Origin: Candidatus Bipolaricaulia bacterium
Lineage (GTDB): Bacteria > Bipolaricaulota > Bipolaricaulia > JBHIAT01
Direction of reading: 5' to 3'
Length of the DNA stretch: 22,096 nucleotides
NCBI GenBank assembly: GCA_046758705.1
Contig: JBHIAT010000046.1
Location: 1-22,096 of the forward strand
Shown: in pieces, positions 461 through 22,096 of the stretch
Position numbering within the stretch: the stretch's first letter is position 1
Layout of the letters: every line of letters starts with the position of its first letter
Made by a program: the position numbers and the translations under genes
Notes under the pieces: model-generated
Told to the model about the DNA's origin: nothing
The model's input: the letters and a program-made list of their open reading frames with translations, nothing else
Database searches by the model: none

Positions 461-2698
461 ATGACATCATCGATCGACTCGTTTATCACAATCCTGAAAC
501 GCCAGCCCTGGTACCAAGGTCAAATCGAGATCGTTCGGGTGATCCCCGGCCAAGCGGCCCGCTACGGAGTTTTGGAAAAACCGCTCCCGGACCCCGTGAA
601 CACCTATCTCAACCGGGAGAACCTCACGCTCTACACCCATCAGGTCAAGGCGATCGAGCAGATCCGGGGCGGGGAAAACGTTATTCTCACCACTCCGACC
701 GCCTCGGGCAAGACGCTGGCGTTCAACCTGCCAATCTTCGAACACCTGTATCATGACCGACGGGCGACTGCCCTCTACCTGTATCCGCTCAAGGCGCTTG
801 CCAACGACCAACTGGAGAAGCTACACCAGCTGGAGCGAGCGACCGGGATCGCCCTCGGGGCGAACATCTACGACGGCGACACCCCTCAGCATCTGAGACC
901 CAGGATCCGAGAGATCTCCCGTATCATCGTGAGCAACCCTTACGCCCTGCATCAGTACCTTCCGTGGCATCACAAATGGGCCCGGTTCTTCAAACATCTG
1001 AAGTTCGTGGTCATCGACGAAGCGCACCGCTATCGGGGCGTCTTCGGCTCAAACGTCGCCATGTTGATTCGCCGACTGGCTCGCATCTTGGAACGTCACG
1101 GTGCCGATCCGCAGTTCATTCTGTCGTCAGCGACGATCGCCAATCCTGAGGAGCATGCGCACAAGCTGATCGGCAAGGACGTGACGGTCATCGCTGAGGA
1201 CGGCTCGGACCACGGCGACCGGTACTTCCTGTTCTGGAATCCGGTCCATTACCCCGACCACTCGGTCCACCGCCAGACGAGTGACCTGCTCAGGTTGCAC
1301 GCCACGCAGGGGTTCCAGACGCTCTGTTTCACCATCTCCCGAGCGATGGCCGAACTGACCGCGCGCTGGGCGAAGGAGGCAACGAACGGCGAGGTGAAGA
1401 TCGCCGTCTATCGTGCTGGTTACCTCCCTGAGGAGCGTCGGGAGATCGAACGAGCGCTTCGCGACCGGGAACTGGATGCGGTCGCCTCCACCAACGCTCT
1501 CGAACTGGGGATCGACATCGGTGAGCTCGACGCGGTGATCATCGCCGGTTACCCGGGGACGGTCGTCTCAACCTGGCAGCAGGCGGGACGCGCCGGACGG
1601 GGAACCGCGCCCGCGGCTGTGACGCTCGTTGGGTTCGAGAACCCGCTCGATCAGTACTTCATGAGACACCCCGACCGGTTCTTTGAACGCCCCCATGAGC
1701 ACGCCATTATCGACTTAGACAACCTGCACATCAAGATGGGTCACCTGATGTGCGCCGCCGCCGAACTCCCGTTGCGTCAGGTCGATGAAAAACAGTTCGG
1801 CGACTTCGCACCGTTGCTTGAACCGTTGGAGGACCAGGGATTACTGGGATCGACACCCGTCGGTTGGGTCTATCAGGGGACCGCCCGGCCGGTCGACGTG
1901 GTGAACTTGGACAATATCTCTAACGAGATCGTCGAGGTGATCTGCGACGGGGAGACTCTGGAGACGATGGAAGTGCGGCAGGCCTACGCAGAGGCCCACC
2001 CAGGCGCCGTCCTGCTCCATCAGGGTGAGACCTACCTGGTCTCCGATCTCGACCTGGAACGGAACACGGCAACGGTCGTCAAAGAGGAGGTCGATCATTA
2101 CACCGATGCGCTACAGGTTACCAAGACCCGGATCTTGAACCCGGTAGACTGGAAAGATCACGGCGACTTTGAACTCGCTGTAGGCAACCTCCACGTGGCC
2201 GAGCGGTTCGTCAGCTACCAAGTCAGACGGTACGATCGCGTCCTTGGCCGATACGAACTCGACCTGCCGCCGATCGAGTTCGAGACAGTCGGGGTCTGGT
2301 TCACCGTGCCCGATGCACTCCGGCAGGCGGTGATCCAACGCGACGGCGATTGGGTCGGAGGGCTCCATGGAGCGGAGCACGCGATGATCGCTATGACGCC
2401 GTTCCACGCGATGTGCGACCGCTGGGACATCGGTGGATTGTCGACGCCATACCATCCGGACACCGGAGCTGCAACCATCTTTATCTACGATGGCTTCGAG
2501 GGCGGGATGGGCATCTCGGAGAAGATCTTTCAGCTCTTTCCTGAGCTGGTAAAGACGACCTACGAACTGATTCGCGACTGCGGCTGCGAGATGGGCTGTC
2601 CCTCCTGCATTTACTCTCCGAAGTGTGGCAATCAAAACGAACCGCTCGACAAGGCGGCCGCCCTGACCCTGCTCAAAGGGATCTTGGCACGGGTATAG
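461..2698 (+). CDS. DEAD/DEAH-box helicase with C-terminal DUF1998 Zn-binding domain (MrfA/YprA/Hrq1-like)
   Basis: Q motif LYTHQ, Walker A TPTASGKT, YPLKALANDQ, DEAH, SAT, TNALELGIDIG, QQAGRAGR, C-terminal CGCEMGCPSC...SPKCGN. Start moved from TTG 383 to ATG 461, which lies downstream of the TATAAT and avoids overlap with the divergent gene. Confidence 0.93.
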   Translation: MTSSIDSFITILKRQPWYQGQIEIVRVIPGQAARYGVLEKPLPDPVNTYLNRENLTLYTHQVKAIEQIRGGENVILTTPTASGKTLAFNLPIFEHLYHDRRATALYLYPLKALANDQLEKLHQLERATGIALGANIYDGDTPQHLRPRIREISRIIVSNPYALHQYLPWHHKWARFFKHLKFVVIDEAHRYRGVFGSNVAMLIRRLARILERHGADPQFILSSATIANPEEHAHKLIGKDVTVIAEDGSDHGDRYFLFWNPVHYPDHSVHRQTSDLLRLHATQGFQTLCFTISRAMAELTARWAKEATNGEVKIAVYRAGYLPEERREIERALRDRELDAVASTNALELGIDIGELDAVIIAGYPGTVVSTWQQAGRAGRGTAPAAVTLVGFENPLDQYFMRHPDRFFERPHEHAIIDLDNLHIKMGHLMCAAAELPLRQVDEKQFGDFAPLLEPLEDQGLLGSTPVGWVYQGTARPVDVVNLDNISNEIVEVICDGETLETMEVRQAYAEAHPGAVLLHQGETYLVSDLDLERNTATVVKEEVDHYTDALQVTKTRILNPVDWKDHGDFELAVGNLHVAERFVSYQVRRYDRVLGRYELDLPPIEFETVGVWFTVPDALRQAVIQRDGDWVGGLHGAEHAMIAMTPFHAMCDRWDIGGLSTPYHPDTGAATIFIYDGFEGGMGISEKIFQLFPELVKTTYELIRDCGCEMGCPSCIYSPKCGNQNEPLDKAAALTLLKGILARV

Positions 2699-2703
2699 AT
2701 TCT

Positions 2704-3411
2704 CTAATCAGTAAAAGTGATAAAGACAAAAATCTCGTTGTTTGCGCCCTCAAATCCCGGAGTGTTTGCCTCCACAACGATCACGACTCTATCACTAAAT
2801 TTGTAAATCTCCGTGATGCGATGACGGTAAGCCCCTTCACTACCCAATGGCGATTTTCCATCCGCATGAATAAGTCGGGATTCACCTCCATCCGCTAAAA
2901 GTATCTTTATTTTTTGGATTTCCACTGACAATGAATTTTCTTCACCTGTTTTTATCGCTTCTAAAATGATACTTTGATTGTCGGAAATTTTAATCCTGTT
3001 TGAGCCGTTTTCATTGCTGATATAATCTCCTAATTGACCCTTTGTTATATCGTACTGTTCAAATGCTGGTTGAGTGATATATTCCAAACGGCCCCGCAAG
3101 AAATTTTCAAAACAATCAAAATCAAATGTAAATGTTGTCATTCCTTGAATACATCCATAGAGCTCGAAAGAATCTCCGAAGGTTTTCTCAAGGTCCAACC
3201 GGACTTGAAAAACTGCGAAACGCTCATCCGTATTTAGAATCGTGAACTCATAAAAGGCGAACGGGAGAGGGTCGGGGATGATGATCTTTTCGTAAGCGAA
3301 ATATGCTCCTGAATCTGAAAATCCGATCGCATGAAAGTATTCCTCACGTGCGGCATATAGCTGAAACGATATGCTTGAAAAAATGATTAAAACAAGAAGT
3401 AATTTCCTCAT
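2704..3411 (-). CDS. Secreted protein, DUF2259-like
   Basis: Signal peptide MRKLLLVLIIFSSISFQLYA; IGFSDSGAYFAYE resembles the DUF2259 N-terminus; strong SD GAGGAGGT; AT-rich. Confidence 0.65.
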   Translation of the reverse strand: MRKLLLVLIIFSSISFQLYAAREEYFHAIGFSDSGAYFAYEKIIIPDPLPFAFYEFTILNTDERFAVFQVRLDLEKTFGDSFELYGCIQGMTTFTFDFDCFENFLRGRLEYITQPAFEQYDITKGQLGDYISNENGSNRIKISDNQSIILEAIKTGEENSLSVEIQKIKILLADGGESRLIHADGKSPLGSEGAYRHRITEIYKFSDRVVIVVEANTPGFEGANNEIFVFITFTD

Positions 3412-3459: not shown

Positions 3460-4038
3460 TCATTGCTGGTTCCCCTTTCGAGCGTACAACACCCACTCGC
3501 CTGGGGGCGCATCGACCCGATAGTAGTCGGACGGTAGACGGCCGAGCTTTTCAAAGCCCGCCTTTTGCAACGAACGCCGCTCGGCGGTGTTCTTCACCAT
3601 GGTATAAGCGAACACACTGTGAGTCTGTGATAATCCGAGAAGAAACTCCATCGCCAGCGCTTGAACGGAGGTACCATAGCCTTTACCTCGCTCTCCAGGA
3701 TCGGCGATGAAGATGTTCAGTTCCCAGTCGATCTTCTCAGGATCCGGATGAAACTGCCACTTTCTGTAATAAAACCTTCCCAACGGCCGACTGTCTGAGC
3801 TCGTTCGGATGAGAAAGTACCAGCGGTCCGGACTGTGGAGAAAGAGCGTTCGAAACCCGTCCTCGCTGATATCGGGAACCCGCTTGTAAGGACCTTGTGC
3901 GACGGGATCGAGGGTCCACTGGATCAGGAACTCGACGTTGCTCGGGTCCGCTGGTTCCAGCGTGACCGTCTCATTTCTCAACAGAGTTCCCAGCTGTTCT
4001 TCCCGGTTCAAGTCAAATCTCCTTTTTTTGTCTATCAC
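3460..4038 (-). CDS. GNAT family N-acetyltransferase (RimJ/RimL-like)
   Basis: Motif A ERGKGYGT and NTAERRSLQKAGF. GTG start overlaps the upstream stop (GTGA); alternative TTG start at 4011 with SD AAGGAG. Confidence 0.88.
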   Translation of the reverse strand: MIDKKRRFDLNREEQLGTLLRNETVTLEPADPSNVEFLIQWTLDPVAQGPYKRVPDISEDGFRTLFLHSPDRWYFLIRTSSDSRPLGRFYYRKWQFHPDPEKIDWELNIFIADPGERGKGYGTSVQALAMEFLLGLSQTHSVFAYTMVKNTAERRSLQKAGFEKLGRLPSDYYRVDAPPGEWVLYARKGNQQ

Positions 4039-4409
4039 AGTTCCTCTGCTTCTGTCTGATGTATCCGAATCCGATCGATCTCAACAATCCACAGCTTTTT
4101 CTCCACCGACATTCGGGTGAGTGCTTGAAGAAACCGCTGAACCAGTTGTTCCAGAAGAGCAAGGCTAGGATTACGAGGGACACGAATGACAGCGATGCCA
4201 TTCGCTTGATCAGGTGGGAAGCGGGTTACATCCGCGAAATCCAGGTCCAGCGTGACCAAACAGCGCTGTTCAGTACAACATACCTCATAGAGATGCTGAT
4301 CTGAACATCCCTGTAACTCCTGACTCCGAACTGTTTGAACATCGTGTTCTGCAGTGCGGAAAAGTTGCTGAGTGCGAGTTCCAAAGTTCTCATCGAGTTT
4401 GAACCTCAT
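4035..4409 (-). CDS. DUF5615 family PIN-like protein (VapC45-like toxin)
   Basis: MRFKLDEN...SDQHLYEVC...LVTLDLDF...GIAVIR; ATGA-coupled to the DUF433 gene. Confidence 0.9.
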   Translation of the reverse strand: MRFKLDENFGTRTQQLFRTAEHDVQTVRSQELQGCSDQHLYEVCCTEQRCLVTLDLDFADVTRFPPDQANGIAVIRVPRNPSLALLEQLVQRFLQALTRMSVEKKLWIVEIDRIRIHQTEAEEL

Positions 4410-4648
4410 TCTGTCGCCTCAACGGGGATGTCAACATATCTTTCTCGGGACATCTCGGCTCCGTAAGCGATGGCTGCGCGAACATCCTCCTCTGTCAATT
4501 GAGGGTACTCTTCGAGAACCTCCTCAATGCTCATCCCGGTGGCCAGGAAATCAAGAATCAGGGATACCCAGATGCGGGTGCCACGAATACAGGGTTTGCC
4601 GAAACAGACATTGGGGTCAACGGAAATACGCTGTAGAAGGGAGTTCAT
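4406..4648 (-). CDS. DUF433 domain protein (putative antitoxin)
   Basis: RISVDPNVCFGKPCIRGTRIWV...LATGMSIEEVLEEYPQLTEEDVRAAIAY; ATG 4648 has SD AAAGGAG (track start 4672). Confidence 0.92.
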   Translation of the reverse strand: MNSLLQRISVDPNVCFGKPCIRGTRIWVSLILDFLATGMSIEEVLEEYPQLTEEDVRAAIAYGAEMSRERYVDIPVEATE

Positions 4649-4736
4649 CTCTATTTCTCCTTTCTTGCTCATGGTCGCTTATCCATGAAGCCAGCAGACT
4701 CAGACTCACGTTATGAGAAACTTGCTCGCCCCGATC

Positions 4737-5354
4737 CTAAGAACGCTGCGTGAGCAGACGTTCTACCACCTCTTCTGCAAAAAGCCTTACCTGATAGCTC
4801 TTGATCACTTTCCCGAGTCCCAAGAAGACCTGCTGGTCTTTAGATTCGCTACGAACGATCGACTCCGATAACACCCCGAGGAATAAGAGACGAGAACCGA
4901 CTACTAACCCGCCACCACTGCTATAGCTTCCCTGGTTAAGCAGAAAAACAGGGCTACCACTAGACCCCGGAAACACCCCTGCATCGATGAGAAATGCGGG
5001 CTGTCCCCTAAAGTTGTTCCATGGGGGTGTTGCAGTGATTCCCCGTCTGACGATTGGCGTCACATTATGCTCGTCATAGAGACCACTTGGATAGCCTATA
5101 AAGGTTATCTCCTCTATCGCTGCAAGATTCTCCAGAACATCTCTTTCCGGGATCAAGTCAGGTGTAATCGCACGGTAGAAGGGATATCTTCCCGACACCT
5201 CCATTTGATTTAGAAGAGAGCCAATTGGAACAGCTGCTAGATCATTACGCGGGTCCATATGACGGATTAGAAACTCGCCATCGATTTCCGCATATTCAAC
5301 CCAGATCGGTACAGTGGTGTACAGCAGTTGAGTGCTCAGATCATTCAGATTCAT
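4737..5354 (-). CDS. Trypsin-like serine protease, apparently lacking the catalytic-His segment (possible pseudogene)
   Basis: NDLAAV (Asp), FIGYPSG and LIDAGVFPGSSGSPVF (Ser) present; no GTGF...TNxHV segment upstream of the Asp motif. Confidence 0.75.
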   Translation of the reverse strand: MNLNDLSTQLLYTTVPIWVEYAEIDGEFLIRHMDPRNDLAAVPIGSLLNQMEVSGRYPFYRAITPDLIPERDVLENLAAIEEITFIGYPSGLYDEHNVTPIVRRGITATPPWNNFRGQPAFLIDAGVFPGSSGSPVFLLNQGSYSSGGGLVVGSRLLFLGVLSESIVRSESKDQQVFLGLGKVIKSYQVRLFAEEVVERLLTQRS

Positions 5355-5906
5355 TGCTCACTTCCAAGATCCGAAACCCTATCAGGATCAGGTAGCTCTT
5401 TGAGAACTTCATCCGCAATCTCAGAAGGTTTCTTAATCGAAGTACTCCGTCTGAAAAAGTAGGCCACGAGCGTCCCGATCCCTATTATAGGGATCAGAAT
5501 ATAGAACGCTATCCCTCTCGAACTGCCTAGTACAACGTACAACTCCACTCTGCCACGCACTAACTGACGCCCCGACACACAACATTGATACGGCAAGAAG
5601 CAAGTCATTAATTGGGAACCGCGCTTCTTTAATTTTTGAGAGTAAGCGACGGCATCTATACAGTGTGTTAGCCCGGACTTGGACTACGAAGTCGCCCCGG
5701 TCTTGATCCGACAACTTAACCGGATAAGTCCTGGTAGTCGTTGTTAGATCATCAGTTGTATCTGTCCTAAAATCAGCAGCCGGGATACCCTCGGCAGTCG
5801 GTTGAGGCAGGTCGTCGTCAGGCATAACTTTTGAGGTTTGTTTATCCTCGGCTCCAAGCGGACGTTCCCTGCTCTTTTCTCCTGACTTACCCTTCATTTC
5901 CATCAT
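5351..5906 (-). pseudogene. Two-TM membrane protein gene frameshifted by a 7-bp tandem duplication
   Basis: GTACAAC occurs twice in tandem (5530-5536, 5537-5543). Removing one copy joins ORFs 5433..5906 and 5351..5608 into one 182-aa frame whose stop overlaps the protease ATG (ATGA). Confidence 0.8.
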
Positions 5907-6044
5907 TCCGGAGTTTACTGAACTCCTACAGCGTCGTCAACCCACCTATAGCTTAATCAGTCACCGACTGTTCTGTGCTCCATCTTAATATAAAGGATTA
6001 TCTATCGATAGCCTCATCTCTACATCCCTCAACCCAAGCCGGGT

Positions 6045-6073
6045 TTGAAAATCGAAGCCGTTTTCCATAGAAT
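6045..6073 (+). promoter_or_regulatory. sigma70 promoter for tsaB-etfBA
   Basis: TTGAAA (6045-6050), 17 nt, TAGAAT (6068-6073). Confidence 0.65.
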
Positions 6074-6078
6074 GGGTA

Positions 6079-6756
6079 ATGTCAGCGATGCTGACCCTAG
6101 GGATAGACACGGCCACAGAGATGGGGTGTGTCGCGCTCTGCCGCGGCCATGAACCGGTGGGGGAGCTGTCGTTCCCTGCCGCGATGAGCCAGTCGGAGCG
6201 ACTCCTTCCGGCGATCGAATCGCTGCTGGGGCAGGTCGAGACGAAGGCCGCAGAGATCGAACTGATCGCCGTCTCGCTCGGCCCCGGGTCGTTCACCGGC
6301 CTCAGGATCGGGATCGCAACGGCCAAAGGACTGGGGCGCGCGCTGGGAAGACCAGTGGTCGGCATCGCGACGATGGAAAGCTACATCGATCGTGTCGACT
6401 TCTGGTCCGGTCCGATCTTCGTTCTGATCTACGACCGACGCGATCTCGTCTACTGGGCGCGGTTCGAATCGGGGGAACCGCTCGGAGAAGAGCGCTCCGA
6501 CCCTATCGAGGCCGTCTTGGCCAAGGCGCCCTCGGGGACGCTGTTCGTCGGAACCGGAGCGGAACGGTATCGGGAGCAGATCATTCAGCAGGTGAGCAGG
6601 AGCCGCGTGGCTTCGTCCGCCCTGAACGGGCCTTCGGCCCTGAGCATCGCGAGATTGGGATGGCGCAAGTTCGAGCGGACCGGAGCGGATGAGCGGTACG
6701 AACTGGAGCCGCGTTACGCGCAACGGCCGCTGGCAGAGATTCGTTCCAAAGGATGA
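6079..6756 (+). CDS. tsaB: tRNA t6A biosynthesis protein TsaB
   Basis: LGIDTAT, SERLLPAIE, GPGSFTGLRIGIATAKGL, LEPRY; start is ATG 6079 or 6088. Confidence 0.95.
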   Translation: MSAMLTLGIDTATEMGCVALCRGHEPVGELSFPAAMSQSERLLPAIESLLGQVETKAAEIELIAVSLGPGSFTGLRIGIATAKGLGRALGRPVVGIATMESYIDRVDFWSGPIFVLIYDRRDLVYWARFESGEPLGEERSDPIEAVLAKAPSGTLFVGTGAERYREQIIQQVSRSRVASSALNGPSALSIARLGWRKFERTGADERYELEPRYAQRPLAEIRSKG

Positions 6757-6766
6757 GGTGATCGGG

Positions 6767-7528
6767 TTGAAGATCGCGGTCTGTATCAAGCGAGTGCCGG
6801 AGACCGGGGGGCGGTTGGAGTTGACCGACGACCGGATGGCCGTTGATACCTCCAACATGGACTTCGTGATCAACACCCACGACGAGAGCGCGGTCGAGGC
6901 GGCCATTCAGATCAAGGAGGCCGCCGGTGAAGGTGAAGCCCATATCACCATCCTCTCCCTCGGTCCGCCCGAGACGACCGAGGTGATCCGACAGGCGATC
7001 GCCATGGGAGCTGACGCGGGTGTGTTGCTCGAGTGTGAGGAGGGGGACCAAGATTGGGACGCCCATGCCATCGCAAACGCGCTCGTGAATGTGCTCAAAG
7101 ATCGGGAGGTCGATCTCTACCTCCTCGGTCGGGAGGCCGGGGATGACAACCACTATCAAGTGGGACCGATCATCGCGGAACGGCTCGATCTGCCGTTGGT
7201 CACCGGTGTCAGTCATCTGGAGGTCGCGGATGGCGTGGCAGCCGTCCGTCGTGAGACGGAGGTCGGCGATGAGGTCTATGAGATACAATTGCCAGCCGTG
7301 CTCACCGTGAACGACACGATGACCACGCCCCGCCATGCGTCGCTCCGCGGGATCATGCGGGCGAAGCGCACCGAACTCGAGGTATTCAAACCGGAGCGGG
7401 GGGAGCCGAAACTGCAACTTATCGGTCTGAAGAAACCACCCGAGCGCGAAGGCGGAGAGATCATCGGAGAGGGGCCGGAGGCCGTCCCCGAGTTGGTCAC
7501 CCGGTTGAAACAGGACGGGGTACTATAA
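6767..7528 (+). CDS. etfB: Electron transfer flavoprotein beta subunit (EtfB/FixA family)
   Basis: KIAVCIKRVP, INTHDESAVEAA, AIAMGAD, QVGPIIAERL, LPAVLTV; TTG 6767 preceded by SD GAGGTG. Confidence 0.93.
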   Translation: MKIAVCIKRVPETGGRLELTDDRMAVDTSNMDFVINTHDESAVEAAIQIKEAAGEGEAHITILSLGPPETTEVIRQAIAMGADAGVLLECEEGDQDWDAHAIANALVNVLKDREVDLYLLGREAGDDNHYQVGPIIAERLDLPLVTGVSHLEVADGVAAVRRETEVGDEVYEIQLPAVLTVNDTMTTPRHASLRGIMRAKRTELEVFKPERGEPKLQLIGLKKPPEREGGEIIGEGPEAVPELVTRLKQDGVL

Positions 7529-7532
7529 CAAA

Positions 7533-8522
7533 ATGATTTTAACTTTCATTGAAGCACGCGATGGAAAGCCGGTCGAGCCCGCACTCGAGGTTCTGGCCCA
7601 AGGACGGCAGTTGGCCGACGCATTGGGCACAACGCTGGAGGCCGTTCTGATCGGAGCTGGCCTTGAGCAGTCGGCCTCCGAATTGGGGCAGTTCGGCCCG
7701 GATCACCTGCTGCTCGCTGAAGACGAGCGGCTGAGCCACTACGCGCCGGAGGCGTTCACCCGGATCTTGACCGATGCCATTGAATCACGTTCACCCGAGA
7801 TCGTCCTCGGGGCAGCAACGGTCATGGGGAAAGACCTGCTGGGTCGGGTCGCCAGCAAACTGGAACTCGGCCTGGCAACCGATGTAACCGAGTTAGGTGT
7901 GGAAAATGGGACGCTCCAGGTGACCCGGGCGATCTGGGGCGGCAGCGTTCTCGCCGAGGTGGAATTCCACACGACACCGAAGCTGATGACGCTCACACCC
8001 GGGGAGTTCCCACTGGACTCCTGGGAACCGGAATCGAAATCGATCCAAGAACCCGAGGTCGAGCGTCTCGATGTCGCGCTCGAGGACCGGGACTTCCGCG
8101 TCGTCGTTCGGGAAGTCATCCAGCCGGAGCACAAAGGGGTCGAGCTTACCCAGGCCCGAACGGTCATCGCTGGAGGGCGTGGGGTCGGCGGGTCGGAGGG
8201 ATTTGAGATGCTCCAAGAATTGGCCGACCTGCTTGACGGAGCGGTCGGTGCCAGCCGGGTGGCGACCAACAACGGTTGGATCTCCCCTGACCGCCAGATC
8301 GGCCAGACCGGTAAGTCGGTCTTCCCAGACCTGTACATCGCCTGCGGCATCTCCGGCGCGATCCAGCACATCGTCGGTTGCAAGGGGTCCAAGGTGATTG
8401 TGGCCATCAACAAAGATCCTGAGGCTCCGATCTTCAAGCTCGCCGACCACGGAATCGTCGGGGATCTGTTAGAGATCGTCCCGGCGCTGATCGAAGAGAT
8501 AAAGAAAGCTCGTAGCGAATAA
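7533..8522 (+). CDS. etfA: Electron transfer flavoprotein alpha subunit (EtfA/FixB family)
   Basis: AGGRGVG, VGASRVA, QIGQTGK, YIACGISGAIQHIVG, AINKDPEAPIF. Confidence 0.96.
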   Translation: MILTFIEARDGKPVEPALEVLAQGRQLADALGTTLEAVLIGAGLEQSASELGQFGPDHLLLAEDERLSHYAPEAFTRILTDAIESRSPEIVLGAATVMGKDLLGRVASKLELGLATDVTELGVENGTLQVTRAIWGGSVLAEVEFHTTPKLMTLTPGEFPLDSWEPESKSIQEPEVERLDVALEDRDFRVVVREVIQPEHKGVELTQARTVIAGGRGVGGSEGFEMLQELADLLDGAVGASRVATNNGWISPDRQIGQTGKSVFPDLYIACGISGAIQHIVGCKGSKVIVAINKDPEAPIFKLADHGIVGDLLEIVPALIEEIKKARSE

Positions 8523-15194: not shown

Positions 15195-16379
15195 ATGAAC
15201 AAACGATTGCGTTGGAGCATTACCCTGTTAATCATCCTGATGATCGGCGTTGGGCTATTGAACTTCAATGCCACTCGTGGCCAACAGGAAAGCCAGTTTG
15301 AACTGTTCTCCCCGCTGTTTCGGGCCTATGATTATCTAAGAAATTATTTCTACCATCCGGAACTCGACCGCCAGCAGCTCCTCCACGGGGCGATCCGGGG
15401 GATGCTCAAGGAGCTGGATGACCCTTACTCCCGGTTTATGGCTCCGCAAGAATACGAGGAGATGCGGACCCGGATCGAGGGAGAGTTCGGGGGCCTGGGG
15501 ATTAAGATCGCGATCCGGGATGAACAGCTGATAGTCATCGCACCGATCAAGGGCACTCCGGCTTATCAGGCCGGGGTGAAGGCCGGGGACATCATCTTGG
15601 AGATCGACGGGATCTCGACCGAGGGAATGGATCTCAGCGAAGCGGTGCAGGTGCTGCGCGGCGATCCGGGGACACCAGTGACCCTCACGGTCACACACCG
15701 GGATGGAACCGATGAGATCCTGGCGATCGTTCGCGACATCATCGAGATCCAAACCGTCGAGAGTGAGCGGCTCGAGGGGGAGATCGGTTATATCCGCATC
15801 AACAGCTTCAATGATCGGACCGCTGCCGAATTGGACAAGGCGTTCGCCGAGCTTCCCAGGATTCAGGGGATTGTCCTCGACCTGCGCGACAACCCAGGTG
15901 GACTGCTGAGCGCTGCCATCGAGGTAAGCAGCCGGTTCATCGATCAAGGCTGGATCGTCTCGACCAAGAGCCCGACCACAGCTGACCAGGTCTACCACAC
16001 TCGGGGGAACGAACTCCCCAATTTCCCATTGGCCGTCCTCATCAATCAGGGAAGCGCCAGCGCTTCCGAGATCGTGGCCGGCGCCATCCAGGACCATCGT
16101 ATGGGGATCCTGGTCGGTGCTCGAAGCTTCGGGAAGGGGCTGATTCAGACGACCTTCCGGCTTGGGGACGGATCAGCGATCGCCTTGACCACCGCTGAAT
16201 ACTATACCCCGAATGGGTCCAGGGTTCAGGATGTCGGCCTGACCCCAGATATTCCGGTCGAGTCGGGAGATGGAGGGGAAGTTGAGGGGGGCGAAGACCA
16301 GGTGTTGAACACGGCGGTGGCGTGGGTGAAAGAACATCTGGGACAGCGGATGCCCCTGCTGCTCTCGGGCACCTCCTAA
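15195..16379 (+). CDS. ctpA: S41 family carboxy-terminal processing protease (PDZ)
   Basis: N-terminal signal/TM, LDDPYS, GGLGI PDZ, LDLRDNPGG, SASASE (Ser), SFGKG (Lys); stop overlaps the stop of the convergent gene. Confidence 0.93.
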   Translation: MNKRLRWSITLLIILMIGVGLLNFNATRGQQESQFELFSPLFRAYDYLRNYFYHPELDRQQLLHGAIRGMLKELDDPYSRFMAPQEYEEMRTRIEGEFGGLGIKIAIRDEQLIVIAPIKGTPAYQAGVKAGDIILEIDGISTEGMDLSEAVQVLRGDPGTPVTLTVTHRDGTDEILAIVRDIIEIQTVESERLEGEIGYIRINSFNDRTAAELDKAFAELPRIQGIVLDLRDNPGGLLSAAIEVSSRFIDQGWIVSTKSPTTADQVYHTRGNELPNFPLAVLINQGSASASEIVAGAIQDHRMGILVGARSFGKGLIQTTFRLGDGSAIALTTAEYYTPNGSRVQDVGLTPDIPVESGDGGEVEGGEDQVLNTAVAWVKEHLGQRMPLLLSGTS

Positions 16380-19300
16380 GACGAGCCCTCCAGAGACTTT
16401 GAGCTCGAGCTGTGGAGCTTGTCTTCATACATCCGCTGATCTGCCTGCTTCAGGACCTCCTCCAGTTTGACCTCGCCACCGGGTGAATAGGTGGCGGTTC
16501 CGATCCCCAACGTGATCGGAAAGCCGAGGTCGGGTAGCCGCTCCCGGTTATTCCACCGCTCCAGTCGTTGCTTGAGACGGACAACGGAGCGTTTCGCCTC
16601 CGTCACAGACGTCTCGAGCATCACCACCAGAAACTCGTCGCCGCCGAACCGGATCACGATGTCGGAGTCACGGGTGTGTATCTCCAAGAAGTCAGCCACC
16701 TGGGCTAACACCTCATCCCCCTTCAGATGACCGTGCCGATCGTTGATCTCCTTGAGCTGGTTGACATCGATCATCAGGAATGAGATGTCGTGACTGTACC
16801 GTTTGGCCCGCTCCTCCTCCACCGCGATCGTCTCGTTGAAGTAACGGCGATTGAACAGCCCGGTCAACGGATCCCGGATCGCCGCCTCCCGCAGCTCCTC
16901 CTGACGGTTGAGGTTGCTGATCGAGATCGCCATCTGGCCGGCGACCGACTGGAGCAGTTCGAGGTCTTCGTCACCGAACGCATCGATCTCCCGGCTCTCG
17001 ATGTCGATGACCCCGAGGATCTCCTCTCCCATCTGGATGGGGACGGCCAGCTGGGATCTGATCCCGGGATGATCCTGGAGATGTCTGAGATCCCCGGTCA
17101 CATCGTCGATCAGCGCGGACTCCCGATGCTCAGCCACCCAACCGATCGTCCCCTCCCCCAGCTTCAACACTTTGAACATGGGCTCCATGTATTCGACATC
17201 CTCGTGCCCTTTTAGGATCAGTTGGGCCCCCTGCTTGAGATAGATCGCACCGTGATCGTAGTCGACATTCTCCTTCAGTCGCTTCAGCATCCGGTTCACC
17301 AGGCTGTCCAGATCCTCGATCTGGGCCAACTCCTGACTGATGTGGTAGATCCTCTTGAGCCGCTCCTTTTGCTCGTTGAGCTTCTCCTCGCGCTTGGCTC
17401 GTTCCACCGTCAACGCCGCTAGGCTCGCCAGCATCTCCATGATCCTCAACCGCTCCCGCGTCGGCATCATCCTGTCATCGGGCTCGTCTACGGAGATCGT
17501 CCCGACGATCCCTTCCTCGACATGCATCGGGATGAACAGGAAATCGTCAGGATGCCATCCCCCTGCCTCTCTAGCTTCATCCCCGCCCGCCCCGTAGGGC
17601 ACCTCCCACGGAACCTGATCATGAGGGATGTAGTAAGAACGACCGAGCTTGAACGCCGGGTTGAAGATCAGCTTGCGCGTCTCCGGGGGCATCCGACGTC
17701 GACGCAGTTCCGCCTCCTCCGTCTCACTCAACCCCGCGGTGGCGATCATGCTCGTCCTGATCCTTTCCCCAGCGGAGGTAAAATCGAACGGCCGTTCGTA
17801 GAGCGAGATGACCACGCGCTGGAACGGGCTGTGCTCGGCAACCGCCTCGGCCACCCAGTTCAGGATCTCCTCGACTTTGTGGCTGGAGATAATCTCCTCG
17901 ACGATCAAAAGCAGACTGTCACTCAGTGCCCTCTCCCGATCCTCACGCCTCGCCTGCTCCAGCTCCTGCCTCTCCCCCAACACCCTGAGGAAGGTCTCGA
18001 CCACCCGGTTATCAAATTGGGTCCCGGCGTTCTTGGACAGTTCCTCGATCGCCTCCTTCTGCGACAGAGCCCGGCGGTACGGCCGATCGCTCGTCATCAC
18101 ATCATAGGCGTCGACGACAGCCAGGATCCGTGCCTCTAAAGAGATCTCCTCCCCAGCCAGGCCCCAGGGGTAGCCGGTGCCGTCCCAGCGCTCCTGATGC
18201 TCCTCAACGATCCGGCCCACTTGCTCCAAGCGGCGGATCCCGGAGATGATCTCTCCCCCGATACTCGGATGTTTTTTCATCTCCAGCCACTCCTTGGGGG
18301 TGAGCCCCCCCTCCTTGCCAAGCATGTGGTCCGGGACACCGATCTTGCCAATGTCGTGAAGCAGCGCGGCATAGCGCAGCTGCTCGATTTGCTCCTCGGA
18401 CAGGCCGAACGCCACACCCACCTTGGTAGTCATCTCCGCCATCCGGTGACCGTGGTCCTCGGTGTGCTTGTCCTTCTTCTCGATCGTTTTGGCGAGCGTC
18501 GTCACCGTCTGGATAACCCAGTCCTCCATCTCCATCCGGCGGCGGATGTTGGTGATCTCCACCCCGATCTGACCCGCCATCGACAGCAACAACTCCTGAT
18601 TCTCTGAGTCGAACGCGCCGGCCTTCTGACTCTCGATGCTCAGCACCCCGACAATCTCCCCGTCGATCTCAATCGGCACCGCCAACACCGAGTGGATTCC
18701 CTGACACAGCTCCAAATAGCGCGGATCGCGGGCCACGTCGTTCACCAGGGCGGATTCCCCGTGTCGGACGACCCATCCCGGAATCCCCTTTTCCAACTCT
18801 AGGGAATCATTCACGTCATATATGACCTGGTCCTCCGGCCCCTCTGCCCCCTTGACGACCAGCAGCTGGTCTTCCTCCACCAAGAAGATCGCGCTGTAAT
18901 CATAGGAGAAGCTCTCTCTCAACCATTGGAGCACCGGACCCATCAGGGTCTCCATATCCAGGATCTTCGCCATATTCTGGCCGATGAGATAGGTGCGACT
19001 GAGCCTCTTGCGCTGTTCGGCGAACTTCTGGGCCATCTGAGCGCGACGCATAGCCCCGCTGATCTGTTGGATGGCGTTTTTGGCGACCTCCAGGTCCTCG
19101 TTGCTAAACGCTCCATGCTCGGTCTTGCTGTCGATGTTCAGGTATCCGAGGATCTGTCCATCGATCTCGATGGGCAATGACAGGGTCGATTTTGGCCGGC
19201 CGACTTCCTCAAGGATCGCCCGATTCCGTTCGTCGAGGGCGTGGGAGCTGAACTGGTTGAAATCGTCGATGATGACTGGTGCGCCCCCGTATTCGCCCTC

Positions 19301-20206
19301 CTGATAGGCGGCGTCGCGGGGAATCCTCACCTGCTGGAGCTTCTGAAGATCCCACCCCTTGGCAGCCTTAACCGTGAACACCTGCTCCTCGGCATCCCAC
19401 AGGATAACCGAGCCGGCTTCGGCCTTTGGGATCAGGCCGACCGCCTCCTCGAGAACCGCGTTCAACACCCACTGGATATCGATATCGGTGTCGATCGCGG
19501 TGATGAAGTTGCGCAGGTAATCGAGCTCTCGCTCCAACCGCTCTAGATACTCGCGCTCGTCGCGCCTGCGCCTGCCCTGTCCCTGAGTCTGGGGCTTGCC
19601 AATGCGTAACAGCCCCTGAATCACCGTCCGCTGAACCTTGGAGACCTTCTCGACGGCTCTCGCGATCCGGACCCTGTCCTCAATGGGAAGTTTGAGCGTC
19701 TCGAGTTGCTTACTCTGGATCTTGTCGGCATCGATCTCCCCCGGCCCCCCGGCTTTGAGGATCTCCACAACCCCCGCTTGCTTGATGTTGAGCTCATTGG
19801 AGAGCTCGGCGACCGACGGGAATCGGCCATACTCCTCGAAGAAGGTGCCGATGACGATCCTTACCTTCCCACTGAGCATCTGTATCCACTCGGAGAATTT
19901 ATCGGACGGTTTTCCCTCAAGATAACGCCGGATCTCTTCTCGGATTAGGCGGGTTGCATGGTCGTCGAATCCGACGCCCTGAGCCGGGTTAAAACTGTAG
20001 ATGGCGTTCAATAGACCGATATAACCGGCCTGGATCAGGTCATCCGACGGCCGGCTCGAGCCGGCAAGCTCCGTGGCAGCTGTCTGTACCAAGCTGAGTT
20101 TCGCCTCGACGATCCGCCGTTCGGCGCCGGGGTTTCCTTCTCCCTGGAGCGATTGGAACAGTTGCTCCAGATCCCTCACATGGTTTTGTTCCCTTCCTTG
20201 GGTCAT
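16376..20206 (-). CDS. Sigma-70-like domain (regions 2-3, truncated 4) fused to GAF-GAF-HD-GYP-GAF-GAF-GGDEF
   Basis: DDLIQAGYIGLLNAIYSF and YGRFPSVAELSNEL; four GAF-like repeats (LSLPI..GYLNID, LAVPI..GVLSIE, LFIPM..GTISVD, LAVPI..GVIDIE); LLHDIGK, HQERWDGTGYP, DAYDVMTSDRPYR; DPLTGLFNRR, RDSD-IVIRF-GGDEF. Confidence 0.92.
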   Translation of the reverse strand: MTQGREQNHVRDLEQLFQSLQGEGNPGAERRIVEAKLSLVQTAATELAGSSRPSDDLIQAGYIGLLNAIYSFNPAQGVGFDDHATRLIREEIRRYLEGKPSDKFSEWIQMLSGKVRIVIGTFFEEYGRFPSVAELSNELNIKQAGVVEILKAGGPGEIDADKIQSKQLETLKLPIEDRVRIARAVEKVSKVQRTVIQGLLRIGKPQTQGQGRRRRDEREYLERLERELDYLRNFITAIDTDIDIQWVLNAVLEEAVGLIPKAEAGSVILWDAEEQVFTVKAAKGWDLQKLQQVRIPRDAAYQEGEYGGAPVIIDDFNQFSSHALDERNRAILEEVGRPKSTLSLPIEIDGQILGYLNIDSKTEHGAFSNEDLEVAKNAIQQISGAMRRAQMAQKFAEQRKRLSRTYLIGQNMAKILDMETLMGPVLQWLRESFSYDYSAIFLVEEDQLLVVKGAEGPEDQVIYDVNDSLELEKGIPGWVVRHGESALVNDVARDPRYLELCQGIHSVLAVPIEIDGEIVGVLSIESQKAGAFDSENQELLLSMAGQIGVEITNIRRRMEMEDWVIQTVTTLAKTIEKKDKHTEDHGHRMAEMTTKVGVAFGLSEEQIEQLRYAALLHDIGKIGVPDHMLGKEGGLTPKEWLEMKKHPSIGGEIISGIRRLEQVGRIVEEHQERWDGTGYPWGLAGEEISLEARILAVVDAYDVMTSDRPYRRALSQKEAIEELSKNAGTQFDNRVVETFLRVLGERQELEQARREDRERALSDSLLLIVEEIISSHKVEEILNWVAEAVAEHSPFQRVVISLYERPFDFTSAGERIRTSMIATAGLSETEEAELRRRRMPPETRKLIFNPAFKLGRSYYIPHDQVPWEVPYGAGGDEAREAGGWHPDDFLFIPMHVEEGIVGTISVDEPDDRMMPTRERLRIMEMLASLAALTVERAKREEKLNEQKERLKRIYHISQELAQIEDLDSLVNRMLKRLKENVDYDHGAIYLKQGAQLILKGHEDVEYMEPMFKVLKLGEGTIGWVAEHRESALIDDVTGDLRHLQDHPGIRSQLAVPIQMGEEILGVIDIESREIDAFGDEDLELLQSVAGQMAISISNLNRQEELREAAIRDPLTGLFNRRYFNETIAVEEERAKRYSHDISFLMIDVNQLKEINDRHGHLKGDEVLAQVADFLEIHTRDSDIVIRFGGDEFLVVMLETSVTEAKRSVVRLKQRLERWNNRERLPDLGFPITLGIGTATYSPGGEVKLEEVLKQADQRMYEDKLHSSSSKSLEGSS

Positions 20207-20344
20207 GAACCTCTCATATTCATCGCTTTTCCGTCATGAACCCCCCAAAAATACCCCCGCGGTTTGGTAGTTGGTTAGGAGATATCAGGGTTGTCCACGG
20301 CCCCTGATATAATTATGCACCGTGGGGTGAATTTCTAGAATAAA

Positions 20345-21265
20345 TCAATAAGTCAGATGATCATATCCGCCTCCACCCTGGCTATCGGTCAGCCGGGCGA
20401 TCTCAGCTTCGTCCTGGTTCCACCGCTCTCGCACCCGCACCTGAAGATCGAGGTAGACGTGTATCCCGAGCCGTGCCTCAATCTCCTGGCGTGCCTGCCG
20501 ACCGATCTCCCGGATCATCCGACCACCCCGACCGATGAGGATCCCCTTCTGGGAGCGGCGGGCCACGTAGATGTGCGCATAGATCTCCATCAGCTCCCGG
20601 TCCTCCCGCTCCTTCATCTCGACGACCTCGACGGCGACTGCATAGGGGATCTCCTGGTGGGTGAGCTGAAAGATCTTCTCGCGGATGAATTCAGCGATCA
20701 CGAACGACTCCGGTCGGTCGATGGTGATCTCAGCGGGAAAGTACTGGGGCCCCCCCGGCAGATATTTTTTGATCAACTCCAGGGTCAGACCCAGGTTGAT
20801 GTTCTCCACACACGAGATCGGGACGGACTCCCGAAACAGGCCTGTCTCCTGATAAGCGGCGATCGTCTCCTCCACCTCGTTCCCCTGCGCCAGGTCGATC
20901 TTGTTGACGGCCAACAGGATCAGCCCTTCGAAGTCCGAGAGCCTGGAGAACAGTTTCCAATCGTATGGCTGGATCTCCCCCCACGGCTCCACCATATGGA
21001 GGATGAGGTCGAGGCCGGCGAGTGCCTTGAACACCTGATTGAGCAGGTATCGGCTCAGTTTATCCACCGGTCTATGGAGGCCGGGGGTGTCGGTGAAGAT
21101 GATCTGGGCATCCTCCAGATTCTTGATACACCGGATACGGTTCCGGGTTGTCTGATGCTTCTCCGAGGTGATCAGGACTTTGCGACCCAGGATCCGGTTG
21201 ATGAACGTCGACTTGCCGACGTTGGTCATCCCTAAGACGCCGACGAAGCCCGACTTAAATCCCAT
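20345..21265 (-). CDS. era: GTPase Era
   Basis: GMTNVGKS, QTTR, DTPG, NKID, IREK...EIPY, KH domain ILIGRGG; SD GGAGG. Confidence 0.97.
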   Translation of the reverse strand: MGFKSGFVGVLGMTNVGKSTFINRILGRKVLITSEKHQTTRNRIRCIKNLEDAQIIFTDTPGLHRPVDKLSRYLLNQVFKALAGLDLILHMVEPWGEIQPYDWKLFSRLSDFEGLILLAVNKIDLAQGNEVEETIAAYQETGLFRESVPISCVENINLGLTLELIKKYLPGGPQYFPAEITIDRPESFVIAEFIREKIFQLTHQEIPYAVAVEVVEMKEREDRELMEIYAHIYVARRSQKGILIGRGGRMIREIGRQARQEIEARLGIHVYLDLQVRVRERWNQDEAEIARLTDSQGGGGYDHLTY

Positions 21266-21295
21266 CCTGGTTGCCTCCCATATTGTGCTTCCTCA

Positions 21296-21324
21296 ATTGT
21301 ACTAACCGGACACTCTACGGGCAA
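21296..21324 (-). promoter_or_regulatory. Putative era promoter
   Basis: TTGCCC, 17 nt, TACAAT. Confidence 0.55.
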
Positions 21325-21350
21325 CCAGGCGAAGCCCGTCGCGTTCTCGT

Positions 21351-21380
21351 TTGACTTCGGGAGCGGTTACGAAGTAGACT
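21351..21380 (+). promoter_or_regulatory. Putative pilB/gspE promoter
   Basis: TTGACT, 18 nt, TAGACT. Confidence 0.55.
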
Positions 21381-21435
21381 AAAGCAAGGTTTAATCAAAT
21401 CCCACGGCGGTCAGATCGCAACCGGGTGACCCCAG

Positions 21436-22096
21436 ATGAAAGATCAACTGAAGACCAACTTCCTCAAATACCTGATGAGACAAGATCTGCTCACTGAGGA
21501 ACAGAAGACCAGGGTAGAAAAGATGTTTCAGGAGGATGAAGCCGATCTGGATCGGATCATAATCAGGAACAACATTTTGAAGAAGGATGACTATTACCAG
21601 ATCCTGGCTGGATACCTGTCCGAAGAGATGAGCCGGGATATCATGTTCTACCCCCTGTCTCCTGAGCGTCTCGACGAAGAGATCGTTCGACTCATCCCGG
21701 AATCGATGGCTCGAAGACACGTTATCATCCCGGTGGGCAAAGAGAATGGGAGATTGAAGCTGGCGATGGCGGATCCTTCAGACCTGTTTGCCACCGACGA
21801 CGTTGCCTTTAGGACAGGGTATGAGATCGAGCCGGTGTTGGGAGCCCGGGACGATATCCTCAGCAGCCTGGCTTACGTCTTCGGCGGGATGGACGAATCC
21901 TGGGACGAGGTCATCGGGGATCTGAAGGGAGATCTGCTCCAGGATATCGAGGAGATTGAGGACCAGGATGTCGACCTGGCCGAGGCGTCGAAGCTGGCGC
22001 AGGAGGCACCGGTGTTGCGGTTGGTCAACAACATTATCCTCCAGGCGCTCAAACGCAAGGCCAGCGACATCCACATCGAGCCACTCGATCGCCAGA
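21436..22096 (+). CDS. GspE/PulE/PilB family assembly ATPase, N-terminal part (truncated by the window)
   Basis: Not in the ORF track. My translation: MKDQLKTNFLKYL...LIPESMARRHVIIPV...LKLAMADPSD...EAPVLRLVNNIILQALKRKASDIHIEP. Confidence 0.93.
   Translation, partial: MKDQLKTNFLKYLMRQDLLTEEQKTRVEKMFQEDEADLDRIIIRNNILKKDDYYQILAGYLSEEMSRDIMFYPLSPERLDEEIVRLIPESMARRHVIIPVGKENGRLKLAMADPSDLFATDDVAFRTGYEIEPVLGARDDILSSLAYVFGGMDESWDEVIGDLKGDLLQDIEEIEDQDVDLAEASKLAQEAPVLRLVNNIILQALKRKASDIHIEPLDRQ

Follow-up and report, generated by a model that had tools for sequence, protein, structure and literature searches.

Two of the main routes by which bacteria decide between lifestyles are sigma/anti-sigma partner switching and signaling by cyclic di-GMP (c-di-GMP), and direct links between them have been found only recently, in trans, in Streptomyces. 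In Streptomyces venezuelae, according to the available text of PMC13232838, the GGDEF domain of RmdB binds sigma-WhiG and displaces the anti-sigma factor RsiG. A second precedent is PhyR, which is described in the available text of PMC4598750 as an ECF-type (extracytoplasmic function) domain with sigma-2 and sigma-4 parts, followed by a C-terminal receiver, that mimics a sigma factor by binding the anti-sigma factor NepR. Here we describe P0001, a protein of the uncultured Candidatus Bipolaricaulia bacterium in which a cut-down sigma module appears at the N-terminus of a predicted c-di-GMP enzyme. The window, i.e., the whole stretch of DNA analyzed, is the entire 22,096-base contig C46 of a genome bin of 3.70 Mb in 319 contigs (93.9% complete, 4.7% contaminated), and the source DNA is present in metagenome runs from hydrothermal vents, all belonging to a single study. 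P0001 occupies 16376..20206 on the reverse strand as a single open reading frame of 1276 residues plus the stop codon, with the start ATG at 20206 and zero internal stops. The unbroken frame that the original prediction had seen running from a sigma part into a GAF/HD-GYP/GGDEF part is thereby upheld, and the peptides that it quoted are all found where it had put them. We give roughly even odds (about 0.5) to the reading that the module is a group-3 sigma mimic serving as a docking input domain of the enzyme, in a mode of action that we infer below.

A sigma module without its DNA-reading domain

The N-terminus had been predicted to be a SigB/SigF-like sigma lacking the region 4.2 helix-turn-helix (HTH), and this is borne out by Pfam, by the NCBIfam SigB/F/G model TIGR02980, and by an alignment with paralogs. 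Pfam Sigma70_r2 matches residues 33-96 at 34.4 bits (cut-off 24), Sigma70_r3 matches weakly at 14 bits (cut-off 25.3), and Sigma70_r4 finds no match in P0001. TIGR02980 aligns residues 29-154 with positions 5-131 of its 227 (E = 4.4e-21), at a score of 75.6 bits that stays below the full-length cut-off of 234.35. Residues 1-210, for which a missing sigma profile had been named as one outcome that would refute the prediction, are hence covered by Sigma70_r2 above its cut-off and by TIGR02980. Among solved structures, the one nearest in sequence is sigma-F in complex with SpoIIAB (chain 1l0o_C, E = 2.6e-13), whose alignment, like that of TIGR02980, reaches residue 154. An AlphaFold2 model of residues 1-250 is all-helical, with a mean pLDDT (predicted local distance difference test) of 86.9 and a long helix at 217-240; Foldseek ranks RNA polymerase-bound SigB, SigS, and SigA as its best matches, at E values of 4e-7 and weaker and TM scores of 0.3-0.4.

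An alignment sets the module against four complete SigB/F-like paralogs (C110, C258, C48b, and C112) and three further truncated ones (C58, C85, and C48a), all from the same genome; the statements on individual regions are a reading of this alignment. Region 2 (2.1-2.4; residues 28-98, 19913..20125, on the reverse strand like all domains given below), delimited by Pfam, TIGR02980, and the alignment, is retained in P0001. Regions 3.0-3.1, the sigma-3 domain (residues 105-153, 19748..19894; TIGR02980 to residue 154, 1l0o_C, and the paralogs), appear to be retained as well, and so is region 4.1, which comprises two helices (residues 160-204, 19595..19729; paralog alignment, with model helices at 175-186 and 190-202). 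Regions 2.1-2.2, 3.0-3.1, and 4.1 remain near the complete paralogs. In three of the four truncated modules, region 2.2 (DDLIQAGYIGLLNAI) is nearly the same as in the complete paralogs, and P0003 has a proline at the glutamine that the paralogs conserve. In region 2.3, P0001 reads FDDHATR in place of the paralogs' FSTYATH, a Tyr to His replacement; histidine takes the place of this tyrosine in two of the four modules. The P0001, C85, and C48a modules lack about 16 residues of the region 3.2 linker, and the DNA-reading HTH of region 4.2 is absent from all four. From the first residues of that HTH on, P0001 continues instead with an unrelated basic stretch of Gly, Gln, and Arg and then with the helix DEREYLERLERELDYLRNFITAI, which leads into the first GAF domain. 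This low-complexity stretch and the long linker helix (residues 205-242, helix 217-240; 19481..19594) are kept in the C58 and C85 paralogs. The missing region 4.2 HTH implies that P0001 is no working member of the SigB/SigF sigma family. Its N-terminus is confirmed, as far as sequence and predicted structure go, as a derived group-3 (SigB/F-type) sigma module without the 4.2 HTH, and the pattern of retention and loss, with 2.2, 3.1, and 4.1 kept and 4.2 gone, fits a putative mimic.

The remainder of the protein is the GAF/HD-GYP/GGDEF part that had been proposed. Pfam places GAF 1 at residues 243-386 (19049..19480), GAF 2 at 416-549 (18560..18961), HD-GYP at 571-735 (18002..18496; HD_5, 136.8 bits), GAF 3, with an insertion, at 777-935 (17402..17878), GAF 4 at 965-1096 (16919..17314), and GGDEF at 1109-1265 (16412..16882; 139.4 bits), so that the domain order is sigma 2-3-4.1, helical linker, GAF-GAF-HD-GYP-GAF-GAF-GGDEF. 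An alignment with PmGH (4mcw_A, E = 5.7e-38) has the HDIGK and DGTGYP motifs in place, and the HHE triplet of PmGH reads HQE in P0001. The GGDEF motif is intact, and RDSD precedes it by five residues, at the I-site position, where an RxxD motif forms an inhibitory site. With both the HD-GYP and the GGDEF motifs intact, P0001 looks like a bifunctional enzyme of c-di-GMP turnover, predicted to act as phosphodiesterase and cyclase under four GAF sensor domains. The enzyme core (residues 215-760) is an ordinary member of its family, with 3617 homologs at E <= 0.001 among 8000 scored. Among the best 120 GAF-GAF-HD-GYP homologs, a sigma domain is found only in P0001 and in P0006, a paralog from the same genome; the rest have PAS, REC, or GAF inputs. 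As a side observation, the HQE triplet recurs in P0006, and HHE is found in an HD-GYP gene beside a complete sigma gene on contig C48.

Truncated paralogs in the same genome

A search of the genome with residues 1-214 of P0001 yielded 19 matches. Sigma70_r2 is found in 20 frames, 15 of which contain Sigma70_r4 as well; the five without it are P0001, P0006 (C58), P0002 (C85), P0003 (C48), and a sigma-2-only gene of 140 residues. P0006 (771 residues) has the same module and linker followed by GAF-GAF-HD-GYP, with 58% identity to P0001 over the enzyme part and 70% over the linker. P0002 (at least 387 residues, the gene being cut by the contig start; 2-1165, forward strand, in L042) has a module 71% identical to that of P0001 and the same linker, and then an unrelated domain of about 130 residues; no Pfam family matches its C-terminal 132 residues. 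An Atlas search hints at an OB-fold of the tRNA_anti-like kind for this domain (feature score 0.93, TM 0.59-0.66), which we mention as a lead only. P0003 (282 residues) consists of the module and a helical tail, and it belongs to an operon on C48 (L043, C48:1-6000, 1005-2845, reverse strand) together with the sigma-2-only gene and a GAF-only gene of 180 residues, the last overlapping P0003 by 4 nucleotides. This operon has the appearance of a split "sigma-like plus GAF" arrangement. No gene encoding region 4 alone lies beside any truncated gene in the gene contexts of these genes. That three sister genes have the same cut-down sigma piece, joined with its linker to different C-terminal parts across the paralogs, suggests that it is probably a working docking module and not an accident.

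We placed the modules in a tree of 63 rows, built by a quick method from eight sequences of this genome and the outside matches P0005 and P0007-P0060, with P0004 and P0061-P0150 excluded. The four truncated modules form one clade (SH-aLRT 97); a larger, unresolved group (87) that contains this clade also takes in the four complete paralogs and four outside rows. The truncated module appears, from this tree, to have arisen once from the SigB/F-like sigma genes of its own lineage. The C46 and C85 modules differ with a ratio of nonsynonymous to synonymous substitution rates (dN/dS) of 0.35, at a dS of 0.46. Between P0001 and P0006, the sigma-like module is 46% identical (dN 0.46), GAF1 45% (dN 0.48), GAF2 50% (dN 0.43), and HD-GYP 73% (dN 0.19); the dN of the sigma part is about that of GAF1 and GAF2, and the constraint on it thus equals that on the sensor domains. 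Judged by these comparisons, the module is under purifying selection. A one-off deletion fusion, which had been kept in view as an alternative, is excluded by this selection and by the paralogs with the same truncation and linker.

A possible starting point for the fusion is seen elsewhere on C48 (L054, C48:14000-21629, 4327-6438, reverse strand), where a complete sigma gene of 261 residues is followed by a 441-residue REC-PAS-HD-GYP gene. The sigma stop codon runs straight into the ATG of the latter, with the frame unchanged and zero intergenic bases. Such an operon therefore exists in this genome, and a fusion through a small deletion is easily pictured. The pair can be viewed as an unfused counterpart of the fusion.

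Phyletic distribution and a family of sigma-GGDEF proteins

A phmmer search with residues 1-214 against 1.84 billion representatives returned 8080 matches at E <= 0.001. The nearest are P0002 and P0003 from the genome itself (P0006 scoring slightly lower) and P0004; P0002, P0003, and P0006 are singletons. A word-based search for other proteins of 701-2233 residues with the N-terminus of P0001 returned the query only. The junction has no match in a set of one genome per species, in which nine loci, from Bacillota, Syntrophomonadaceae, and Atribacterota records, match the region 4.1 part only, at 31-43% identity. Linker patterns applied to metagenome contigs gave 380 pattern matches and no relatives. 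In 40 related genomes, all labeled as of the same class, there are 25 matches at E <= 1e-20, in frames of 226-351 residues, distributed over 21 of the 40. The original prediction would have yielded to relatives that always encode a separate complete sigma gene and a separate enzyme. In these 40 genomes only complete, separate sigma genes are seen, which goes against it, and inside the genome the paralogs share the truncation, which speaks for it. As yet the fusion family is known from this one metagenome-assembled genome only. A literature search for sigma-GGDEF or sigma-HD-GYP fusions found nothing relevant, in keeping with the earlier remark that no characterized protein of this architecture was known.

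Among the 150 best phmmer matches, 52 have at least 330 residues, and we scanned these together with P0003. Sigma70_r4 is present in 48 of these 53 proteins and a GGDEF domain in 38, i.e., in 37 besides P0001. These 37 are complete SigB-like sigma factors (r2-r3-r4) of 400-490 residues with a C-terminal GGDEF-type domain (e.g., P0007, P0011, P0016, P0017, P0027, and P0038), and not one of them has a GG[DE]EF motif; R-x-x-D stands at the I-site position in 32 of the 49 rows of the family alignment. With P0007 as the query, 553 clusters are recovered at E <= 1e-20, of which the best 120 all have r2, r3, r4, and GGDEF. Where source names are given, they are those of a plain sigma factor, mostly in Armatimonadota. 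Outside the genome, these sigma-GGDEF proteins count among the closest relatives of the P0001 module (32-38% identity), and they form a separate clade (support 100), which indicates an independent fusion. They may be sigma factors with a nucleotide-sensing tail rather than enzymes. A literature search on a family of complete sigma factors with degenerate GGDEF domains found no paper. The existence of this family suggests that the coupling of sigma and GGDEF domains is far more widespread than the searched literature shows.

Functional implications and alternative explanations

The sigma module occupies the N-terminal input slot that relatives of the enzyme fill with PAS, REC, or GAF domains. 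Having arisen once from a SigB/F-like sigma of the same genome, it was duplicated and joined through the helical linker to varied C-terminal parts. In the mode of action that we propose, it would no longer direct transcription but would act, as a sigma mimic, in the capacity of a protein-docking domain; from what is generally known of the holoenzyme, a module that has lost the 3.2 finger and half of sigma-4 is not expected to assemble into a normal holoenzyme. The docking partner would be one that the complete paralogs use, either an RsbW-type anti-sigma kinase or the RNA polymerase core. Binding of this partner could be relayed by the linker helix to the GAF/HD-GYP/GGDEF part, such that the state of the sigma/anti-sigma switch would set c-di-GMP synthesis versus breakdown, and P0001 could also titrate the anti-sigma factor. 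Genetic work has mapped the contacts of sigma-F with SpoIIAB to regions 2.1, 3.1, and 4.1, the very parts that P0001 retains; a literature search for SpoIIAB contact regions found nothing relevant. The genome contains one RsbV-RsbW-PP2C module, on contig C34 with no sigma gene adjoining (L040, C34:13000-25833, 3480-7660, forward strand), in which a STAS gene, a 702-residue frame, a second STAS gene, the RsbW-like kinase, PP2C, and a 975-residue frame follow one another. A complex prediction for two copies of the RsbW-like protein with residues 1-215 scored 0.00 and 0.25 (mark 0.32), and we do not use it as evidence either way.

As an extension that we offer only tentatively, and would not ourselves expect to hold in full, the protein might be a two-way converter. 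On binding of an RsbW-type anti-sigma kinase, the enzyme would change over from breaking down c-di-GMP to making it or the reverse, and GAF ligands would control whether the mimic is exposed or hidden, so that the protein would also act as an anti-anti-sigma factor freeing the complete paralogs. If this were true, the sister proteins would couple the same switch to other outputs, and the modular "sigma-mimic input domain" would be a domain class not described so far.

Several observations weigh against the docking of a sigma mimic. All the evidence comes from one metagenome-assembled genome and one study. The RsbW-like kinase and the RNA polymerase core are candidate partners only; the gene of the former is on C34, apart from P0001. 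The RsbW-like protein is absent at E <= 1e-10 from the 150 other genomes of the phylum that were searched, so no argument from co-occurrence is possible. Region 3.2 is full-length in the C58 paralog, and the well-kept region 2.2 would suit core binding as well as anti-sigma binding. Branches in the truncated clade are long, at 0.93-1.02 for C58 and C48a and 0.68 for the stem of C46/C85, versus 0.08-0.47 for the complete paralogs, which could mean relaxation and not a new function. The dS between C46 and C58 is saturated (1.3-1.7), and the dN/dS values for this pair are rough for that reason.

The alternative that survives best, doubtful as we consider it, is docking on RNA polymerase itself: region 2.2 would bind the beta-prime clamp helices with no anti-sigma factor involved, and this would bring c-di-GMP synthesis and breakdown to the polymerase or make the protein compete with true sigma factors. 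The near identity of region 2.2 in three of the four modules is what such docking would call for, polymerase-bound sigma factors head the list of structural matches, and local contacts between a c-di-GMP enzyme and a sigma factor are known from the available text of PMC13232838. However, P0003 has the proline at the conserved glutamine of region 2.2, three of the four modules have a 3.2 finger about 16 residues shorter, and only half of sigma-4 is left. From general knowledge of the holoenzyme, the short finger and the half sigma-4 make the normal two-point attachment, to clamp and flap, unlikely.

It is unlikely, too, that the module is a tolerated relic, left when a sigma/HD-GYP operon collapsed by deletion and persisting as an inert or dimerizing extension with no specific partner. 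A ready precursor does exist in the complete sigma gene that abuts the REC-PAS-HD-GYP gene, the junction occurs in no other genome or metagenome searched, and the branches are long. Yet the module has outlived at least three duplications, its dN/dS is about 0.3-0.35, the constraint on it matches that on the GAF domains, and module and linker have recombined with unrelated C-terminal parts, although a relic is not expected to move as a unit.

Quite improbable is the possibility that the protein is still a sigma factor, one that uses extended -10 promoters requiring no -35 contact and carries its enzyme part as a built-in c-di-GMP regulator. Sigma-70 without region 4.2 can still use extended -10 promoters in vitro, and the 553 clusters of complete SigB-like sigma-GGDEF fusions (E <= 1e-20) are a large family for which a comparable arrangement may hold. 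Nevertheless, P0001 has lost the 3.2 finger and has a histidine for the tyrosine of region 2.3, the sigma-GGDEF family branches off as a clade of its own (support 100) with region 4 retained, and no gene for region 4 alone that could supply a second subunit adjoins the truncated genes.

Finally, a chimeric contig or a sequencing error joining two genes is highly improbable: the bin is indeed fragmented (319 contigs), and a 50-nucleotide repeat inside the sigma part gives rise to contig breaks and one alternative join, but this repeat lies at residues 128-144, away from the sigma/GAF junction, the junction is found within single contigs and without a difference in three of four runs, and the same linker, in an equally unbroken frame, is present in two diverged paralogs.

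Assembly integrity and genomic context

Contigs of four public runs (X1-X4) were compared over 18800-20400; X1 and X2 are a possible source of this DNA, and X3 is another sample of the same study. X1 and X2 each have a single contig over 18800-19805 with zero differences. X3 has a single contig that is identical over 18800-19825 and then shows 58 differences and a three-codon insertion, in agreement with the C85 paralog. X4 yields fragments only. The contigs break or switch paralog at an exact 50-nucleotide repeat (19776..19825) that is shared with the C85 paralog (L042, 380-429) and encodes part of the sigma-3 domain; around it the two paralogs differ at many positions. In X3 the body of P0001 is thereby joined to the N-terminus of the C85 paralog, be it by an assembler path through the repeat or as a real recombinant. 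The repeat makes the assembly link between residues 1-127 and the remainder ambiguous, and since both candidate N-termini are sigma region 2, the architecture is unchanged. It lies outside the linker at 19481-19594, which contigs span, and the sigma/GAF junction is therefore well supported, as a check for sequence reaching across it, suggested at the outset, had demanded.

A purine-rich, Shine-Dalgarno-like GAGAGG, read from the sequence, lies 3 nucleotides 5' of the ATG (20210..20215, reverse strand). A scan of the 138-nucleotide gap between era and the P0001 frame found no promoter-like site, and a promoter and terminator scan of 16000-21500 stayed at chance level (2 vs 1.7 expected and 3 vs 3.5 expected). 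The neighbors in the window are housekeeping genes, encoding an MrfA-type helicase, ETF, an ABC1 kinase, an LCP protein, an S41 peptidase, Era, and a GspE-like ATPase, and there is no hint of a partner among them. The bin measures 3.7 Mb versus 1.1-2.3 Mb for 40 other genomes of the phylum with listed sizes, and 15 complete sigma-70-family genes are present in it. The 150 other genomes of the phylum that were searched are all related to it at the level of the same class only. Either the genome belongs to an unusually large, signaling-rich member of a small-genome group, or the bin is partly mixed.

Comparison with known systems

Like PhyR, P0001 has a sigma-derived domain that is no longer a sigma factor and is fused to a signaling domain, and to this extent the analogy drawn in the original prediction holds. 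The further elements of PhyR, an ECF-type domain and a receiver, are not what is found: Pfam has no Response_reg match in P0001, and the best profiles are of group 3 and not ECF. The module of P0001 is thus a group-3 one (sigma-2, sigma-3, and 4.1) that stands N-terminally on a c-di-GMP enzyme, whereas PhyR has no enzyme part. The RmdB/sigma-WhiG/RsiG system offers a likeness of another kind, in that a c-di-GMP enzyme is in contact with a group-3 sigma, which links partner switching and c-di-GMP turnover. However, sigma-WhiG is a complete and separate protein bound by a GGDEF-EAL enzyme, and here a cut-down sigma lies inside the enzyme chain; moreover, among the three sisters of P0001, P0006 is without GGDEF and P0002 is without any c-di-GMP domain. 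With the SigF/SigB, SpoIIAB/RsbW, and SpoIIAA/RsbV switches the module shares its best profile, SigB/F/G, and its best structure, sigma-F of the SpoIIAB complex. It differs from their sigma factors in lacking the HTH, and its RsbW-like partner is a candidate.

The GAF-HD-GYP(-GGDEF) enzymes, many of them from Chloroflexota and others from metagenomes, have the same core as P0001, but among the best 120 the inputs are, save for P0006, PAS, REC, or GAF and not sigma. The sigma-GGDEF family in turn keeps region 4 and has its GGDEF-type domain directly after it, in contrast to P0001, in which GGDEF is intact and about 900 residues away. If our reading is true, a group-3 sigma remnant within c-di-GMP enzymes would hard-wire the two routes of lifestyle decision to each other, and it would be a second, independent case of sigma mimicry besides PhyR. 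Sigma mimicry and modular c-di-GMP enzymes are each known already; what is new, on the best available reading, is a group-3 sigma mimic within a c-di-GMP enzyme.

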